A stretch of DNA of 64,000 nt from Candidatus Latescibacterota bacterium (lineage in GTDB: Bacteria > Latescibacterota > CBDEFO01). Location of the stretch: assembly GCA_965237525.1 (NCBI GenBank), contig CBDEFO010000004.1:384001-448000 (forward strand). The letters are read 5' to 3'. Below, piece after piece: positions 11,749 to 64,000 of this stretch. A model generated the notes under the pieces. The model saw only the letters and a list, made by a program, of their open reading frames with translations, searched no databases and had not been told where the DNA came from. The stretch's first letter is position 1; each line of letters starts with the position of its first letter. The position numbers were made by a program, and so were the translations under genes.

Positions 11749-13268
11749 AAGCCTTGTGAAATAGTTATGTCCCAGGCAGCGTCTGAAGCGCCGATTATGG
11801 GTCAAAGAGTAGCATATCGTATCGTTTTGCTGTGGAATAAGCAAAATAGTCTTATCAGAGTTCTGGTCAGCAAGGAACAGGAGCTGTTTGAAGAACAGGA
11901 TGCACTGTCTTTGACAGACAGGGCACACATAGACGCTTTCCCCCTTCTTATGAAAGATACAAGCCTCTTGAGATTCTGTACTGTTGCAACAAGATTCAAC
12001 TGTTCATTCAGTGAGGCTAGTCCTCTATAAGGGGCTCGTCCCATACCGTGTTGTTGCCTGGCTTCAGCAAAGATATGTTCACTGCGTTTACGGAGTCTCC
12101 GGGAGAGTTTGTAGTCAGCTGTTAATGAGATAGACCGTGCATGATTTCTGGCTTTCGCCTCTCGCACTTTTCTATCCCGTTCGGCCTGAATATGTGCTGA
12201 ATTTGTCTTGTTTTTCCATGTAGGAATCGGTTCAATCTTCTCATCGGCTCGCAGAGGAATATGGGGTATGATTCCCCGGTCAAGTACATCCGCGATAAAA
12301 TTACCAGAACCGTAACCGGTATCGGCACTAAGTGTCTGAATATCTTTGGGCATGGTGTATGTTTCAAGGTCATCTACCATCTTAAGGGCACTTTCGGGCT
12401 CTGCTGTCCCTGTCGCCTGCGTGCCCTGAGTCTCAAGGATTACTCTGCTTTTTGTGTCGATCAGATCATGGCCCATAAACGAGAGAAAAGCCCCTTTGCC
12501 CTTCGATTTGCTGTATAAGCGCGCGTCGGGGTCTGTAGTCGAACGGTGTGTTTGGTGTCGTCCACTTTTCACCATGAAAGTCTTTATCCTGAGGATGCCC
12601 GGACCTACCCTTTGTCTTATCACCTTCAAAACCGATTCCCTTGAGATAATCATCAAGAGAAACAGGGGGTTCTATCGGCTCAATACTTTTCACTGAAGCA
12701 TCAGCTTGTATCTGAGTGCCGTCGACACTAAGGTGTTTACCGCTCACAAGACCGACATCTATGCAACACTGGACTACCTGACGCATTATCCGTTCAAACA
12801 ACCCACTGGATGCCCACTTGTGATTGCGAAGCTTGTTGATCGTGCTCCTATCCGGAACCGCATCATCAAATGTCTGATGACAAAACAACCGATATGCCGC
12901 ATGCATCCCCACTTCCTGACAGAGCCGATTCTCACTCAAATTATACAGATAGCCAATAAGGATCATTCGAACAACTAATTCAGGATCAATACCGGGTCTG
13001 CCATTGTCAGGGCAATAACAATCTGATACAACGTCTCGTATAAATGAAAAATCAACTGCCTCATCAATCTGACGAAGGATATGATCCTCGGGAACTAAAT
13101 CCTCCATCTGAAAATAGTGAAACATCGGATTTGTCTGTTCCTGCTTTTGTGGGGTCATTGTTTCCTCCATGTATAATATTATCAATAACATAATATAATA
13201 CATCGGAACTGCTTTATCAATGCTTGTTCTATACTACTTTCTGAATCTAAGGGTTTTTCACAAGGCTT
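11749..13268 (-). mobile_element. IS1182-family insertion sequence (~1.52 kb)
   Basis: Terminal IRs AAGCCTTGTGAAA / TTTCACAAGGCTT, flanked by TTAA at 11745-48 and 13269-72. Confidence 0.85.
11802..13158 (-). pseudogene. IS1182-family DDE transposase, frameshifted near 12555
   Basis: LVPEDHILRQID, GRPGIDP, VDGTQIQADAS in one frame; THRSTTDPDARL, ADTGYG, EHIFAEA in the next frame. Confidence 0.85.
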
Positions 13269-14539
13269 TTAAATCTGAAGAAGAGGAGATCTTATCTGCA
13301 TCGGACATAACTACTCCCTACGATCTGCCCTCCCAGGAGGAATTTGAGCTCTTTAACATAGACGATCTGCGCTACGAAAAGTACGACGCCACAATCATAC
13401 GGGACCCTGATAACAAAAGGAAGCTTGCAGGTTACTTCAAGATGGCTGTCGTCCACTTTAGAAATCAAGAGGGAGGACTGTCCTTTACGAACGTACGGGT
13501 CGAGAACCTACTGCGCTATGTGAGGGGCTACACAAATATCGGCATGGAGATAAAGGGTGTCGGCACTCGGTTGAGTTCCCGTTCTATCTTTTCGGCTCCG
13601 CTTATATATATGAGTGGCGGCTCGGTCAAGCTGAGTCAGTTTGAGATTGAGAACTTGGGTATCTACCTCAGAGGCGGCGGCACGCTCTTTGTAGATTCAG
13701 GCGGAGGATTCTATCAGAGTACGTTTGTCAGACAAATGAAGATGTATCTCAAAGAGGCCTTGAGGGACTCGCTGGGCAGGGAGCCTGAATTCCGAAGAAT
13801 TTCTAATGCTCATCCCCTCTTTCATGCCTTCTACGACTTTGACAACGGTCCACCGATCCCGAACCCCGACTCTACGAATGATTATCTGGCAGGAGTCTGG
13901 ATAGATGACAGGCTTGCAGTTCTCTTAAGCGCAGCCGGTATCTCCGCTCACTGGACTGACACCGGAGAGATATTTCTCCAGTTCGGCGTGAACCTCATCG
14001 TCTACACCCTTACACACGCCCCACCATCCCTGGTTAAAACGAGACCTATGCCCGCGTGGCTGAAGCGTCCACCGCGAGTGGCTAAGTTTGAGCAAAAGGA
14101 GGAAAACCCCTTTGCGGGCACAGGAGGTTACCTTGCCCTTTTGAGAACGCCCTTTCACAAGACCATTGAGAAGGATCAGTTCAACGTCTATCTGGACGGT
14201 GTAAACTTGGACATCTCCGAACTTGGAGATGCCAGCAACGGCGTTATGTTCAGCAGACTTCAACCGGGAGACCATGTGCTCAGGGTGGAATACAATGGAA
14301 AATCCAAAGAGCTCGATTTATCCCTGATAGATGGGGAGGTTCTCACCGTCAAATTCGGCATCGACAAGATATTCCTCGTAAATAGGTTCAGGCTCATTCG
14401 CGACGATCCCCACTTGGAATATGCCGATTGGATCCAACAGCACGCTGATCTGAAGATAGCCGGAATCTACGAAGATTATCAGCAACCGCCAGATGCGCGT
14501 TCCGCAGAGACCGAAGATCCGGTGTACACTGATCGCTGA
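13269..14539 (+). pseudogene. 5'-truncated paralog of the DUF4159-like gene
   Basis: From TTAAATCTGAAG onward it matches 15215-16527; the first ~16 codons of the listed ORF come from IS sequence. Confidence 0.8.
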
Positions 14540-28905: not shown

Positions 28906-28920
28906 TAAAGTGGAGATATT

Positions 28921-29163
28921 GTGAGACCGCTATCGATCTTACTCAACATTGCCGTTGTTACTGCAATGATTTTTCTAATTGCATCTGAAGGTATACCGGA
29001 TGAAGGAAAGTACATGCTGTTGTTTGTACTTCTTATATTCACTCCAATAGTCAATCTTTATGTATTACTCGGAAAAAATGGGGACTGGGTTAGTCTTTAC
29101 TTTAAGAGAAAGGCCATGGAAGAAAAAAGTAGGATCGAGGAATTACAGAACAAAAAGCAATAA
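28921..29163 (+). CDS. Small two-TM hypothetical protein (cargo)
   Basis: GGAG RBS; AT-rich; two hydrophobic stretches. Confidence 0.7.
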   Translation: MRPLSILLNIAVVTAMIFLIASEGIPDEGKYMLLFVLLIFTPIVNLYVLLGKNGDWVSLYFKRKAMEEKSRIEELQNKKQ

Positions 29164-29253
29164 TTACTGCGCACAATGGCTTGTAGACAGTTGAACTCAA
29201 GAAAAGATTTCCACCTTTCCGATAGTCTGCTGGAAATGCATATAATAACAGAC

Positions 29254-29370
29254 GAAGATAATTAGCGAATGCGGTTGGTGAACATAATAGACTCTGTAGT
29301 AGCCACAAGGTAAAAACTGAAAAGCTGGATGCCCCAGAGTAATGTATATTTGTAATAGTTCGGATATACT
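29254..29370 (+). repeat. Degenerate copy of the BMC-P 5' end plus a shared ~65-bp tail
   Basis: ATGCGGTTGGTGAACATAATAGACTCTGTAGTAGCCAC resembles the gene start at 32766; tail matches 30837-30899. Confidence 0.75.
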
Positions 29371-29411
29371 GCCGGGAGGTTTCCGGTTTTTAACTTAGGA
29401 AGACCCACAGA

Positions 29412-30734
29412 ATGTCCCAGTGGATAGAAAGAATTGATAGCCATCCTCTACATGAACAGATGAGGACACTTGATTCAGTATTGGACGAACTGGATGAATT
29501 TGAGGACCCTTCGGAAGAGGGGACTCACGGCTTTGAAAGGCTAAGACAAATCAACGCTTTAGTTCAATCTAGAATATCCAGTTTGGATCCATTCCTTTTC
29601 CCTTTGCATATTCTTGACAGTCTTAGCTCTTCCATTCAAGAGATAACATCACAAGTTAAGCAGTACACGTCAAACCGGGACCTGGGCCACTTGAATAACG
29701 CGAACCAGGAAGCGGACACCGTGTTAGTTAATATTTCTAACTTACCTGTAATTAGAGGGCTTGAAGATGTCCAGGGACTCAGGGAAGCAGCTACTTCCTT
29801 TCGAAGATCCGTTGCACAGTATCAGAGATATGTGGAGGATGAACAAAAAGGGCTACAGGCTCCAATTCAGAGCTCACAGCAAAGGCTGGAACAATTAAAC
29901 ACAGAAATAGAAAACCAGAGAGGACGACTTGACTCTGCAATCGCTGAGTTTCAAAAACAGTTCTCTGAGGCAGAGGAGCGTCGGAGAAACGAACACGGGC
30001 AAGAAGAGAAACAGAGAGCCTCAGGATATGTGCAGGCGCAAACTGAGCGCGCAGAAACTTTCAGGGCGAATAGTGAAGAATGGCAGAAAACTTACCAGAA
30101 TCTGAAAGACGAAATCGCCAAAGCCCATGAAACTTTAACAGAAAAATATGACAGCAGCATACAAGAACTTGAGAGCAATTTCACCCAAAGCGCCGAAGTA
30201 TATATGCAAGAATTGGAATCTCACAAGGAACGGGCACAAGAACTTGTCTACGTAATAGCAAATACAGGTATGGTTGGTGGGTACCAGAAGATTGCCAATG
30301 AGGAGCGTCGGTCAGCAAATCGGTGGCATGTCATTACAATTGTTTCGTTGATCTGTCTAATAGGGTTCGCAATCTATGCTTTTGCTTCAACCATAGGTGA
30401 AGAAGTCAAAATTGCGACTTTTCTTGGTCGTGCATTTGTGGCAGTCACTTTTGGTATTTTGGCTGCGTATGCCGCGCGACAAGCAGACAGACACCAGGAA
30501 ATTGAACGAAATAGTAGAAGAGTTGAACTAGCGCTAGCATCCATCGACCCATATTTGGCTGGTCTCCCTGATGACACATTACAGGAGGTTAAAAAGGATC
30601 TTGCTCAAAGGTTTTTTGGTCAGCAGGATTCTGAACGGGCAAAGCGTAAGGAGAAGTTTAGTGGTAACGCTGCCGACCTGCTCCGCATGACAGTCGAAGC
30701 ACTTGTTGATATAGCGAAGAAATCTGGCAAGTAA
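29412..30734 (+). CDS. Coiled-coil protein with two C-terminal TM helices (cargo)
   Basis: 440-aa ORF, AGGAAG RBS, heptad-rich middle region. Confidence 0.8.
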   Translation: MSQWIERIDSHPLHEQMRTLDSVLDELDEFEDPSEEGTHGFERLRQINALVQSRISSLDPFLFPLHILDSLSSSIQEITSQVKQYTSNRDLGHLNNANQEADTVLVNISNLPVIRGLEDVQGLREAATSFRRSVAQYQRYVEDEQKGLQAPIQSSQQRLEQLNTEIENQRGRLDSAIAEFQKQFSEAEERRRNEHGQEEKQRASGYVQAQTERAETFRANSEEWQKTYQNLKDEIAKAHETLTEKYDSSIQELESNFTQSAEVYMQELESHKERAQELVYVIANTGMVGGYQKIANEERRSANRWHVITIVSLICLIGFAIYAFASTIGEEVKIATFLGRAFVAVTFGILAAYAARQADRHQEIERNSRRVELALASIDPYLAGLPDDTLQEVKKDLAQRFFGQQDSERAKRKEKFSGNAADLLRMTVEALVDIAKKSGK

Positions 30735-30778
30735 TCAAACAAGACCCTCTGATCTGGGAAATGATTCTGGACAACATG

Positions 30779-30969
30779 AAGGATATTTACTCCAAGGCAC
30801 TTAGGGAAAGTAATAGGCTCTGTCGTAGCCACATGGTTAAAACTGGACGCCACAGAGTTCACCCAGAGTAACGTATATCTGCAATAGTGCGTATATACCG
30901 CCAAATTGAAAAGATATCTGAAATAATGTGGACATGAACGAGGATTATTTTAGGATTATTTGAGAAAGT
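30779..30969 (+). repeat. Second degenerate BMC-P 5' copy and tail, then a copy of the aldehyde dehydrogenase 3' end (30942-30969)
   Basis: GGCACTTAGGGAAAGTAATAGGCTCTGTCGTAGCCAC; GGATTATTTTAGGATTATTTGA(G/T)AAAGT matches 28884-28911. Confidence 0.8.
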
Positions 30970-59629: not shown

Positions 59630-60298
59630 ATGAGACAGATGAGAAGGCTCTTGCAGATTGCAATTCTTTTAGGTTTAATTGGCGGAATGCTGTTCACACC
59701 GCAAGCTTGTGCCGAGACGAAATCCTCAAAAGGCTCTTTCGTTTTGTCATTGATCGTTCCCGGTCTTGGGGAATACTACGTCCAGGGCATGAACAAAACG
59801 ACGAAGTTCTTCTGGAGTACTGAGGCAGCAGTCTGGGCCAGTTTCGCGGCTTTCAGGAAGTACGGGAACATAAGGGAAGAGGACTATAAAACCTTTGCTG
59901 CTGTGCACGCTAAAGCGTCGCCTGGGGGAAAGTCGCAAGAGTTCTTCGACGACCTCGGATTTTACTCCAGCGTGTACGAGCACAACAGCACAGCCCGCGC
60001 AGATGAGGGTCCCGGCGGATTCGTCTACTCTGAGGACGATCCGGCTTCTGTGTGGGAATGGAACTCTAGAGAATCCAGAAAAAGATATAGAGAGCTCAAA
60101 AACAGCAGTGAAGTTGCCCGGCGAAGATCGCTCTTTGCCATAGGTGCTGGTGTTCTGACCAGGACCATAAGCGCGATCAACGCTTCAAGAGTAGCAAAGG
60201 ATCTTGATAGAAGTCTTCCCTCGGATCGAGACTTAAGTTTCCGCGTAGAGACGGACTATGTATCCCACATTCACATCAGACTATCGAAGCACTTCTAA
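59630..60298 (+). CDS. DUF5683-like protein, paralog of the previous gene
   Basis: SLIVPGLGEYY, RTISAINA. Confidence 0.7.
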   Translation: MRQMRRLLQIAILLGLIGGMLFTPQACAETKSSKGSFVLSLIVPGLGEYYVQGMNKTTKFFWSTEAAVWASFAAFRKYGNIREEDYKTFAAVHAKASPGGKSQEFFDDLGFYSSVYEHNSTARADEGPGGFVYSEDDPASVWEWNSRESRKRYRELKNSSEVARRRSLFAIGAGVLTRTISAINASRVAKDLDRSLPSDRDLSFRVETDYVSHIHIRLSKHF

Positions 60299-60344
60299 AC
60301 AAGTAGATAGCAGTCAGCAGACAGTAGACGGGCCTACCTCCCTT

Positions 60345-60566
60345 GAGATTGTTTCGCTGACCCTTCGGCTCGTCCTTGGCAAAACGCTCTGGGCTTCGGC
60401 TCGCGATGACATTACTTGTCTTTTCTCTTCCGTTATTGTCCGCTCCTGCCTTAGTCATTGAAAGGGACGAAGCCAGAAACAATCTTAATTAGACTACCTC
60501 TCCTTGTACGCTGTCCATTATTTCAGAACTTCATAATCCTGTCGGGACTATTTTGACCTAATACTT
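60345..60566. repeat. REP-like pair followed by the 80-bp repeat (60489-60566)
   Basis: GAGATTG...GCGATGAC, GTCATTG...CAATCT, GACTATTTTGACCTAATACTT. Confidence 0.65.
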
Positions 60567-60569
60567 GAA

Positions 60570-62219
60570 ATGTTTCTTATCCTTCTTTTTGTGCTTTTAA
60601 CAACTTTCCCCGCCAGTCCCAGAGCCGAAGAATGCTTTTCAAAAGGGATATGCGGGACGTCCCGTATCCGGGATAGATCACCTGATCCACCTCCAAAGCC
60701 TTTGTCTTTGCCCTCATCTAAGCCCATATCCCTGGGGAAGTCTGAGATGTTTAAAGCCTACAATTTCCTGACATTTGAGCGCTACGATATAGAGACGACC
60801 TTACGAATTGTCGGAGATAATTGCTACGTCTTTGTGGAGGATTCTCAGTGGCAGTTGAATGTGACCCAGGAAGACGTGGAGCTTATGGCACATATCTTCG
60901 ACGAGTCTACAGACGCCGATCCGGGAAAAGGGGTATTCCAAATCGAAACCTCTGCTTTTGGCGATCCTCCCGACGTGGACGCTGATCCCCGAATATACAT
61001 AGTCCTTTTGGACATTCAGGACGGTCACGTGCCGGGAACTTCGACCAACTTTGTAGCTGGTTACTTCGATTTCAACAATCAGGTACCATCCAGGGGCAGA
61101 GAGATAGTCTATTTAGACAGCAATCCACTGGATCTGGAAGGTCGATTGGCCAAGGCTACGCTGGCGCATGAATTCCAGCATCTGATACATTGGGCACACG
61201 ATATTGATGAGGACGACTGGATCAACGAAGGACTGTCCGGCTATGCTGAGGATATATGTGGCTACGCTGACGAACGCTACGGGGCCCTCTTCCCAGCTAA
61301 TCCCAACAACAGTCTGACATTTTTCTCCCTCCCGATAGCCACAGAGGCGGACTACGACAAGACCTTCCTCTTTGTATCGTATTTTGCGGAACACTACGGA
61401 GGCCTTCCCACTGTAAGGGAACTTGTGGATACCAAAGAGAACGGTATTTTGGGGATAGATAGGACTCTTCAGAAGCTGGCATTGGCCGCTCAATTCAAGG
61501 ATGTCTTCTCAGACTGGACAGTCGCCAATTACCTGGATGACAACGGCAAGTACGGCTACAGCGGACTCGACATAGACAAACCTGAAACGTCCCTGGAAAA
61601 TTTACTGCCAGTTGAGACGTCCTCCGGTCGAGTCCAAGGATGGGCGGCTCAATATATAGAGTTTGTAACTGGAGAGAACCTCAAAATCACGTTCACAGGG
61701 GAGGGCTTTACTCCACGTTTGATATTGAGGAGGAACGGAAAAGCTCAGATTCTGGACTTTCCTGCTTCGGATGAGGACTTAAACTCCACCTTGGAAGCTA
61801 TAGAGGCAGATACGGTAACGCTTGTTGTAGCAAAGACCTCTGATTTTGGCGGCAACTATCGATACTCTGCTCAAGCGAGTACCATCTCGCTGGTGCAGGA
61901 AGAAGAGACAGATTTTGGCCTTCTGCCTTCGAACTGGGAGCTGGAAGGCAACTTTCCGAATCCTTTTAATCCCACAACTTTTATTACCTTCCTCGTTCCT
62001 CCCGAAGGAGATGGCGCACAGGTCGAACTTGATATATACAATTCTTCGGGACAAAGAATTACCAGCCTTGTAAATGAGATAATCCGAGCGGGGAGCTATC
62101 GTCTCAACTGGGACGGTAGGGATAAAAACGGCGATCCGGTCTCAAGCGGGGTCTATTTTGCGCTCCTCAGAACTTCACAGAGCGGCGTCTTCCAAAAGAA
62201 GATGACGCTTCTAAAATAG
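60570..62219 (+). CDS. Secreted zinc metallopeptidase with FlgD/T9SS-type CTD
   Basis: AHEFQH...WINEGLS; NFPNPFNP...WDGRD...SGVYF. Confidence 0.85.
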   Translation: MFLILLFVLLTTFPASPRAEECFSKGICGTSRIRDRSPDPPPKPLSLPSSKPISLGKSEMFKAYNFLTFERYDIETTLRIVGDNCYVFVEDSQWQLNVTQEDVELMAHIFDESTDADPGKGVFQIETSAFGDPPDVDADPRIYIVLLDIQDGHVPGTSTNFVAGYFDFNNQVPSRGREIVYLDSNPLDLEGRLAKATLAHEFQHLIHWAHDIDEDDWINEGLSGYAEDICGYADERYGALFPANPNNSLTFFSLPIATEADYDKTFLFVSYFAEHYGGLPTVRELVDTKENGILGIDRTLQKLALAAQFKDVFSDWTVANYLDDNGKYGYSGLDIDKPETSLENLLPVETSSGRVQGWAAQYIEFVTGENLKITFTGEGFTPRLILRRNGKAQILDFPASDEDLNSTLEAIEADTVTLVVAKTSDFGGNYRYSAQASTISLVQEEETDFGLLPSNWELEGNFPNPFNPTTFITFLVPPEGDGAQVELDIYNSSGQRITSLVNEIIRAGSYRLNWDGRDKNGDPVSSGVYFALLRTSQSGVFQKKMTLLK

Positions 62220-62341
62220 ATCTTACCTTTTCCACAAGAAGTCGTTGGATACACCCTATCCAGGCGATAAATTACCTTGTGTTCCACGATGGCTTTTCCA
62301 ACAGTTTAAAGAAATCGGGTGTTGTCGGGCGAAAATATATA

Positions 62342-62370
62342 TTGACAAGAACGTCGAAAAAGCCTATCTT
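62342..62370 (+). promoter_or_regulatory. sigma70-type promoter
   Basis: TTGACA-N17-TATCTT. Confidence 0.6.
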
Positions 62371-62508
62371 GTTATCCATTGGCAATAACATGCAGTTAGT
62401 CGTTGGGTTGAGCAAAGCTCGTAGCCCTCCTTTTGCTCGCTGTCCTGTGTTACGGTGCGGCACAATACACTCGACAGTGTTGAGGCCTCATAACCGAGGA
62501 GGCGAGTA

Positions 62509-62676
62509 ATGTCTGTGACTTCAAAACTTTTTTGGATGGCTCGAAGAAGCGCCGTTCTTCGGGGCTTGACGTCGGGAAATCCGGTGAGGATTCTACGCAG
62601 GATCATCAACAAGTTCATCGGTCGTAAACTCGTAAGCCGGGAATATTTACATGAGAGGCGACGTGGAAGGCGATAG
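62509..62676 (+). CDS. Small basic protein (55 aa, MSVTSKLFWMARRS...)
   Basis: GAGGAGG RBS; too short for the ORF track. Confidence 0.6.
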   Translation: MSVTSKLFWMARRSAVLRGLTSGNPVRILRRIINKFIGRKLVSREYLHERRRGRR

Positions 62677-62702
62677 TCCAATAGGATTTTAGAGTAAGAC
62701 TT

Positions 62703-62879
62703 ATGCATAGAACTTTGATGATAATCAAGCCTGATGCTACGTCTCAAAACCATATAGGAGAGATAATAGACAGAGTCGAAAAAGAAGGCTTCAGAGTTCT
62801 TGCTATGGAGATGACAACTCTGAGGAGGGAAGAAGCAGCAAGGTTCTTTGAAACCAGAAGATATATCATGATGATATAA
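62703..62879 (+). pseudogene. ndk: 3'-truncated copy of ndk (first 50 codons plus 8 unrelated codons)
   Basis: MHRTLMIIKPDA...EAARFFE; 9 mismatches in 150 nt versus 63614-63763. Confidence 0.92.
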
Positions 62880-62966
62880 GTATTCGCACTGCACATAACA
62901 CAGCATATACACTTTGGGCTGACGCCCTTGCCTTTCGGGACATTGCTTAAGAGGGAAGGAAAATAT

Positions 62967-63350
62967 ATGGAAGACATTGAGAATGTTAGGAAATATAGAA
63001 AAGATATTTGCCAAGCCTTAGGTGTTGAGTTTAAAGAAGAGGATATGAATACCGATTATTTCCTCGGTAGGTTTCTGGGGGAACAAAGGGATTATCTTGA
63101 TTCTTTAGGCCTGATTAATCGTGGTTTTTGTCCCCTTTGTGGTGAGAAGCCAATAGGTAATGAATATTACAGAGGTATGGCATTTTCAAAGGCCCCCCAA
63201 TACTTGTGCAAGGATTGTTATGAGAGAACTGACCCACACTCGGCTGTCCCTGGATATACACGAAGGTACTACACTGTAAAATTTGTTATGTGGGCTGTTG
63301 GTCTTGGTATATTGATAGGAGCATTCTTATTGATTAGGGGGTGTTTTTGA
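62967..63350 (+). CDS. Zinc-finger (CxxC...CxxC) protein with a C-terminal TM (cargo)
   Basis: CPLC, CKDC; AT-rich; purine-rich RBS. Confidence 0.75.
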   Translation: MEDIENVRKYRKDICQALGVEFKEEDMNTDYFLGRFLGEQRDYLDSLGLINRGFCPLCGEKPIGNEYYRGMAFSKAPQYLCKDCYERTDPHSAVPGYTRRYYTVKFVMWAVGLGILIGAFLLIRGCF

Positions 63351-63379
63351 CTTTGTTCTAGTTGGAGGTGTTAAAATCT

Positions 63380-63589
63380 ATGACTAATGATGAACGACAT
63401 CATACTTTTCTTTTCAAATATTGTGGCTATATCATCTATCTTGTTTTCTTGGTTGGGTTATTTCGAAATGGGGGTGTGGCTACTTTACATTTCAAAAACG
63501 GCAGATGGTTATTCGCTATTTGGGCCCTATTTTCAATTATCCTTTTGCCTAAGGCTACGTTGGACCTCATTCTACTATTGGGTCGATAG
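63380..63589 (+). CDS. Small two-TM protein (cargo)
   Basis: GGAGGTG RBS; its stop lies inside the duplicated segment. Confidence 0.55.
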   Translation: MTNDERHHTFLFKYCGYIIYLVFLVGLFRNGGVATLHFKNGRWLFAIWALFSIILLPKATLDLILLLGR

Positions 63590-63613
63590 GTCTAAGGTTT
63601 TAGGGTATGTCTT

Positions 63614-64000
63614 ATGCAAAAAACTTTGATGATAATCAAGCCTGACGCTGCGTCTCAAAACCATACAGGAGAGATAATAGCCAAAGTCGAAAAAGAAGGC
63701 TTCAGAGTTCTTGCTATGGAGATGACAACTCTGAGGAGGGAAGAAGCAGCAAGGTTCTACGAAGTGCATAAAGGTAAGGATTTCTACGAAAGTCTTTTGG
63801 ATTTTATGACGTCGGGTAGGATCGTTCCGATGGTGTTAGAGCGGGAGGATGCCGTCGAGTATTTAAGAAAGGTCATCGGAGCCACTAACCCCGAAGAGGC
63901 TGAACCTGAAACTATCAGAAGCGACTTTGCCACGGATGTTCAAAATAACGCTGTCCACGCATCCGATTCTCCCCAAAACGCTGAGGTTGAAATAGCATTC
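63614..64000 (+). CDS. ndk: Nucleoside diphosphate kinase (runs off the window)
   Basis: IIKPDA, FYEVHKGK, FMTSG, GATNP, NAVHASDS. Confidence 0.97.
   Translation, partial: MQKTLMIIKPDAASQNHTGEIIAKVEKEGFRVLAMEMTTLRREEAARFYEVHKGKDFYESLLDFMTSGRIVPMVLEREDAVEYLRKVIGATNPEEAEPETIRSDFATDVQNNAVHASDSPQNAEVEIAF

Follow-up and report, generated by a model that had tools for sequence, protein, structure and literature searches.

The closest described counterpart of the unit reported here is the insertion with long target duplication (Furuta 2010, PMC2853133). In the accessible part of that report, the inserts are shorter than 20 kb and lie between imperfect direct repeats of about 25-420 bp, which often cover a translation start or stop and leave the target gene intact. 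For the release and reinfection of such units, the same text notes a lack of experimental evidence. The mechanism behind the footprint has mostly been guessed so far.

Other systems share single traits with it, as far as the accessible parts of the respective reports describe them. In E. coli, after a single crossover of a recircularised linear fragment, a duplicate of 109-950 bp of the target flanked the foreign DNA (PMC3240628). As in our unit, the foreign DNA lay between partial duplicates of the target gene, and host functions were sufficient there, but the substrate was a laboratory plasmid. Classical HFIR, treated in the same source, gives a deletion at 3-10 bp of microhomology, whereas the unit described here has a duplication and an imperfect tract of 30 nt. 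In transformation-induced merodiploids, a donor fragment bridging two sister chromatids likewise duplicates the target, but through long repeats and with a homologous donor, and the duplications span kilobases to hundreds of kilobases and hold no foreign cargo (PMC3784515). The minimal mobile elements of Neisseria likewise comprise one to three accessory genes between conserved genes, which vary by strain at a syntenic site (PMC1797815). SALIN/attG single cassettes are similar in that cassette-like DNA is found in core operons without an intact integrase (bioRxiv 10.1101/2022.09.11.507474). Unlike them, our unit has a complete attC at neither end, and its duplication measures 175 bp instead of a few. 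As for the minimal mobile elements, the concept does not, to our knowledge, include a target duplication.

The unit at ndk is a new and clean example of the known gene-gain footprint. It shares with the class of Furuta 2010, as described in the accessible text, a unique repeat of more than 30 bp, an insert below 20 kb (736 bp), a relative with an empty site and the absence of any mobile-element gene. It differs from the subclass with restriction-modification genes, which are missing here. Since its cargo consists of two small genes of no named family, it has the same footprint without being a restriction-modification element. It goes beyond the class in two respects: one joint can be traced to a homeologous tract of a donor relative, and exchange inside the stub has taken place between strains. 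Unlike most examples, the locus adds an intact donor relative, which bears on the cut site and the resemblance, and several strains, which bear on the later fate of the stub. The literature searched, mostly without subscription papers, yielded no publication on the lineage or on these terms in combination.

The ndk locus and its empty counterpart

The window, i.e., the whole stretch of 64,000 nt that was analysed, belongs to a genome of 4.58 Mb (G000). The only other genome of the genus (G001) served for comparison. The parts of the ndk locus named below lie on the + strand. At the right end of the window, ndk carries an insertion with a target duplication of roughly 175 bp; the site is empty in G001, and the right end of the insert is cut inside a cargo gene.

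The leader and the start of ndk are present as two direct copies, 911 nt apart from start to start. Their local alignment runs from a CGATAG at 62671 and 63584 to about 62852 and 63763, and coding identity stops at 62847 and 63758, after codon 48. The original prediction of a segment of about 180 bp on both sides of a cargo was thus confirmed by alignment, and the segment (a direct repeat of 161-177 bp, above 30 bp) occurs nowhere else in the 4.58 Mb. Copy 1, the stub (62671..62847), comprises the leader and ndk codons 1-48 (NDK, E 2e-14), and its ORF (62703-62879) extends ten codons into the cargo. Copy 2 (63584..63758, delimited by alignment) has a diverged leader and the same codons. It opens the intact ndk of 139 aa (63614..64000; Pfam NDK, E 3e-50), which ends just beyond the window. 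The genes 3' of ndk are presumably a yceD-like gene, rpmF and plsX. Nine differences in 150 coding nt, mostly non-synonymous, had been counted between the copies. The count is correct, but two of them (codon 49) lie beyond the breakpoint at 62847, so that seven remain inside the repeat, six non-synonymous and one synonymous, all in codons 2-24. Identity increases toward the 3' end of the repeat, where a perfect core of 74 nt (62774..62847, equal to 63685-63758) follows the differences.

The cargo between the copies measures 736 bp and has 39% GC, against 49% for the genome. It consists of a non-coding left end (62848..62966), ORF1 (62967..63350, 127 aa) and ORF2 (63380..63589, 69 aa), which stops on the TAG of the second CGATAG, as predicted. 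No integrase, transposase, IS or phage match was found when the 736 bp were compared with the repeats of the genome, Pfam and PHROGs. The joints showed neither IS ends nor a transposase remnant, and they resemble none of the repeats in this IS-rich genome. An IS or phage remnant, named beforehand as a possible refutation, was not found in the cargo.

G001 can be aligned at about 95% as far as 62847, and then again from 63598. It has a single ndk, i.e., the empty-site genome that the original prediction had called for, and the two flank alignments overlap on it by 160 nt. In sequencing run X1, which may be the sample of the assembly itself, contig depths were 11.3 and 13.4 for the flanks, 11.5 for the cargo and 22.7 for the shared core, which forms a separate contig there. 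The core also had twice the flank depth in runs X3 and X4. Run X2 additionally contains an empty allele with difference counts equal to those of G001.

Upstream of the whole unit, a sigma-70-like promoter is predicted at 62342..62370 (10 of 12 consensus positions); both hexamers are also present in G001. Since no terminator-like site was detected in the cargo, its co-transcription from this host promoter would be expected. A basic ORF of 55 aa (62509..62676), which has no Pfam or PHROG family above cut-off, belongs to the ancestral locus and not to the cargo. Its stop codon is the TAG of the first CGATAG and a TAA in G001. The patch from 62400 to 62700, which contains this ORF and the DNA upstream of it, differs from G001 at about 10% of positions versus 2.4% just upstream, and has likely been recombined. 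An Rfam scan of 60000-64000 gave a single chance match only.

Cargo genes and the right joint

ORF1 represents a rare family, in which two CxxC pairs are invariant and the C-terminus is hydrophobic. Its relatives in 22 other clusters share 53-81% identity, and most of them are a few residues longer. Neither ORF1 nor ORF2 belongs to a named family of Pfam or PHROGs, and the Atlas returned unnamed clusters only. A metagenome scan with the ORF1 sequence alone gave no match, whereas a scan with an ORF1 alignment gave 23 loci; one partial match was found in a genome collection. None of the best 15 of these 23 loci adjoins ndk. In one of the 15 (L190), a relative of ORF2 directly follows the relative of ORF1.

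The relatives of ORF2 measure 130 aa (L190) and 139 aa, while ORF2 of the window is broken at about codon 68. In correction of the earlier description of two genes, the second ORF is not a whole gene. It is the N-terminal half of a hydrophobic protein of 130-139 aa. With this query, no relative of ORF2 was found in the other genomes among 168 of the phylum or in viral contigs. These lengths and the intact pair in L190 show that the cargo ends on the right in a broken gene and not at an att site. The cargo looks partly decayed.

At the right joint (63581..63610), the intact ORF2 relative resembles the leader of ndk. Nucleotides 201-230 of ORF2 in L190 and the ndk leader of G001, neither of which carries the insertion, are identical at 21 of 30 positions in an ungapped alignment. 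No diagonal between L190 and 1.2 kb of the G001 locus scores higher than this tract, which shares the top rank. A match of this quality was reached by none of 5000 random L190 windows and by 3 of 10,000 dinucleotide shuffles. L190, the sole donor relative behind this homeology, is 73% identical to ORF2 over the first 201 nt. In sequence, the leader of copy 2 looks like a patchwork of the L190 ORF2 and the G001 ndk leader. These similarities point to a homeologous joint of ORF2 with the ndk leader. A search for homeology at other junctions of the genome-wide census described below revealed no general excess, most matches being orthologous copies or at background level.

Origin of the two copies and strain mosaics

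Over the first 72 coding nt, the stub differs from G001 at 3 positions and copy 2 at 6; over the next 72, both show the same 3 differences. The stub had been described as closer to the NDK consensus. This applies to R3, I18 and R24, which are the states of G001 and the commonest ones in 15 relatives (10, 7 and 10 of them), but not to H2, T13 and D23, which occur in 0, 1 and 0 of the 15 and are absent from G001. In a tree of the 144-nt copies, the two cluster to the exclusion of G001 (93/89, not starred), a topology that does not give the order of events.

The stub had also been proposed as the original 5' end. In every strain examined, the stub's leader and codon 3 are indeed resident-like, and the leader and codons 2-3 of copy 2 differ from all resident-type leaders seen. 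In contrast, T18, A23 and K24 are no mark of an incoming 5' end, although T18 and K24 had been read in this way, since they also occur in the stub of other strains with the cargo.

This is seen in X3 and X4, where a leader similar to that of G001 (depth 13.6 and 14.3) continues into a core of 136 nt (29.7 and 33.2) that has the sequence of copy 2. Depth there is 18.1 and 19.3 for the cargo, 15.5 and 17.4 for the 3' part of ndk, and 4.7 for the window-type upstream allele. According to these depths, the cargo is part of the dominant strain, whose two copies both have T18, A23 and K24; the phasing uses contig depth in one sample (X3 = X4) and the same graph shape in X8, and no read or contig spans the unit. 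The cargo contig of X3/X4 and the window disagree at 5 of 835 nt. For the dominant upstream allele the count is 26 of 339, and this allele has 24 of the 34 listed variants in common with G001. Between strains, codons 1-24 of the stub differ at 6 of 72 nt, far above the rate in the cargo (Poisson 6e-6), which argues that recombination and not mutation shaped the 5' part of the stub. The strain with the G001-like leader shows no difference from the window over 63623-63758 and one over 63729-64000, as compared with 7 and 12 for G001.

The apparent crossover points vary by strain (codons 4-10 and codons 25-48). Both strains are most simply accounted for by a double crossover whose left exchange fell at different positions of the stub. 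Gene conversion from copy 2 to the stub could also be the source of the X3 pattern.

Proposed mechanism and alternatives

The unit probably arose when a foreign fragment of 736 bp was joined to the chromosome by illegitimate and homologous recombination of the host, with no dedicated enzyme, and was later passed between strains by allelic exchange. In a first step, the middle of ORF2 would have been fused to the ndk leader at the 30-nt tract of chance resemblance. Because the leader of copy 2 is unusually diverged, this fusion possibly took place earlier, in a relative. In a second step, another illegitimate joint at codon 49, together with one RecA-type crossover in the shared sequence, would have duplicated the gene start, either through a recircularised fragment or through a joint between sister chromatids. 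With its start codon inside the duplication, ndk stayed whole, so that the event would be tolerated and its product kept by selection. In a third step, the stub would serve as the left homology arm, and the block of stub, cargo and ndk would be swapped with an empty allele by double crossover. The exchange may have brought in either the cargo block or the upstream region. With a double crossover within the stub, strain-specific 5' parts would remain in it. comEC and dprA are present, but these genes are common and only permissive.

Taken alone, the locus amounts to a small and partly decayed insert of no known function. Should the homeologous joint and the allelic exchange be borne out elsewhere, gene gain beside essential operons would require neither restriction genes nor integrases. 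A broader reading is that stub-flanked inserts form an enzyme-free mobile unit, whose cargo loops out and re-enters or swaps into relatives without harming the target, with chance homeology of about 30 nt as its birth rule. We regard this generalisation as rather unlikely. If true, the strain mosaics at ndk would be natural evidence for release and reinfection, in a lineage with about 40 such units.

A small circle could have been the origin of the unit, since the single crossover of a recircularised fragment yields such duplications in the accessible account (PMC3240628). A repeated cycle, in which stub and cargo loop out between the copies and re-enter other strains by single crossover, each time providing the intact gene with its 5' end, is unlikely. 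The E. coli duplications, the crossover points differing between strains and the copy-2 leader and codons 2-3 that match no resident-type leader would agree with it. Copy 2 to the right of a single crossover should, however, be resident, and the 0 and 1 differences seen there exclude a resident of the G001 type, though not a mosaic one. Moreover, the depth of the cargo in X1 is close to that of its flanks, which speaks against an abundant circle. No joint of an excised circle or a collapsed allele was present among the contigs listed; contigs cannot show rare ones.

Compared with this cycle, a decayed integrative element is a still weaker candidate. It would have inserted at the 5' end of ndk with a replacement start and lost its integrase by internal deletions. 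Elements that replace the 5' end of their target are represented by SXT at prfC and the dusA islands. The repeat, whose identity rises toward its 3' end as around an att core, and the AT-rich accessory nature of the cargo would suit such an element. Its right end, however, is a cut gene abutting the repeat, and the cargo shows no integrase, IS or phage match, with no recombinase or element arms within the repeats. In 30 other genomes, no second ndk match was a stub near an intact gene (three had some second match), and similar units are found at many unrelated genes.

As for integrons, the left end of the cargo contains a candidate attC-like stretch (about 62891-62950), which by eye we take to resemble a left half-site. 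This resemblance may be due to chance, and the stretch has no folding signal (z of -0.06 and +0.18). A complete relative of this stretch was found in none of 23 motif-matched loci (18 viral, the others from 5 of the 168 phylum genomes, its own included). None of these loci had a complementary right half, and reversed-pattern controls matched at least as often. The central motif had no viral match, and the plasmid matches obtained in these searches were weak. A custom strict attC scanner, insensitive in that it missed two sites seen by eye, gave seven matches in G000, one of them convincing and none at the half-site. At the 3' end of the cargo no complete attC was detected; the coding sequence of ORF2 reaches the joint without a hairpin signal. 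An integron integrase (TIGR02249) above cut-off was found in neither of the two genomes, which had only partial, mostly C-terminal matches. Short C-terminal matches without an intact gene lie in G000 at C6:60691, C7:547864, C7:372756, C7:460346, C6:136831 and C6:283089.

That an integron integrase made the unit, with cassette entry at an attG site (GWT) and an attC x attG event duplicating the gene start, is very improbable. Both joints have GWT triplets at or close to them. Some 1.4 kb downstream of the ndk start, the DNA between rpmF and plsX contains a convincing single cassette, complete attC-like hairpin included. By eye, the census unit at C3:448-449 kb terminates in an attC-like hairpin, and the ORF1 relatives in L195 and L199 have attC-like neighbours. 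Against this, the second CGATAG is preceded by coding sequence of ORF2 and not by an attC hairpin, the first bases of the cargo do not pair with the putative R'' box, and neither genome yields the integrase above cut-off. Furthermore, the attG report describes deletions after imprecise excision, and the word 'duplication' is absent from the main text, as far as it is accessible (bioRxiv 10.1101/2022.09.11.507474). The attG model fits the rpmF-plsX cassette and not the ndk unit. Last, an assembly or haplotype artefact is practically out of the question given the empty site in G001 and the doubled core depth: no listed contig covers the whole unit, but contigs joining the cargo to the stub and to copy 2 are present in runs of three studies (X1; X2; X3/X4), and ORF1 is also recorded on other contigs of 64, 106 and 484 kb.

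Similar units elsewhere in the genome

The host-recombination origin favoured here for the ndk unit can be set beside a census of low-copy direct repeats in G000, with automatic classes, its own gene caller and 19 candidates inspected. Its 104 rows comprise 26 5' stubs, 21 3' stubs, 26 intergenic, 19 paralogous and 12 other repeats. After redundant rows were merged, about 25 loci with 5' stubs and 17 with 3' stubs remained; some rows may be decayed tandem paralogues. In G001, of which 2.4 of 4.54 Mb were covered, 12 of 55 rows were 5' stubs and 7 were 3' stubs. When 85 G000 rows were compared with the covered G001 DNA, 58 had no flank there, and for 8 the site was single-copy and empty (six 5' stubs, one 3' stub and one intergenic repeat).

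A dedicated capture site specific for 5' ends had been suggested. It finds no support: 3' stubs are about as common as 5' stubs (26 vs 21 rows, p 0.56), no motif is common to the 94 junction windows, and no intact integron integrase was found. The motif CG[AT]TAG occurred in 4 of the 94 windows versus about 1.9 expected, and two of these four are the same eutN junction. The likeness to the BMC array, in contrast, was upheld. The eutN unit there has the same architecture, with a stub, a cargo of the YbjQ family and an intact eutN. It is older than the ndk insertion since it is common to G001. Upstream of this shared unit, the eutN start recurs as two additional fragments in a more decayed state (29259-29310 and 30785-30836), and a 2-kb stretch (28912-30942) is absent from G001, where the overlap is only 28 nt.

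Several further observations were made along the way. At G000:C6:36213-37845, a stub unit whose site is empty in G001 has a repeat that starts at a REP-like palindrome, which is missing there in G001. At G000:C3:448153-449243, an aminotransferase gene forms a unit of stub, cargo and intact copy. By eye, both copies start at an attC-type right core, and a complete attC-like hairpin precedes the intact copy. This unit is the best candidate in G000 for a role of an integrase in a long duplication. Just past the window, at G000:C4:448990-449540, a GNAT gene with a complete attC-like hairpin lies between rpmF and plsX. The site is empty in G001, with a 5-nt overlap (GATAG), and the insert has the appearance of a genuine single integron cassette in an attG site. 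G001 has an insert of its own between the yceD-like gene and rpmF (L021:4880-5587). It encodes 235 aa that resemble an Mrr-type nuclease domain. With the ndk cargo, the GNAT cassette and this insert, the stretch from ndk to plsX holds at least three separate inserts in the two genomes. Finally, the window carries at about 11750-13270 a 1.5-kb IS with DUF772 and DDE domains, presumably IS1182-like. G000 has 135 copies of at least 1200 nt and the covered 53% of G001 has 6, which indicates a large recent burst in G000.
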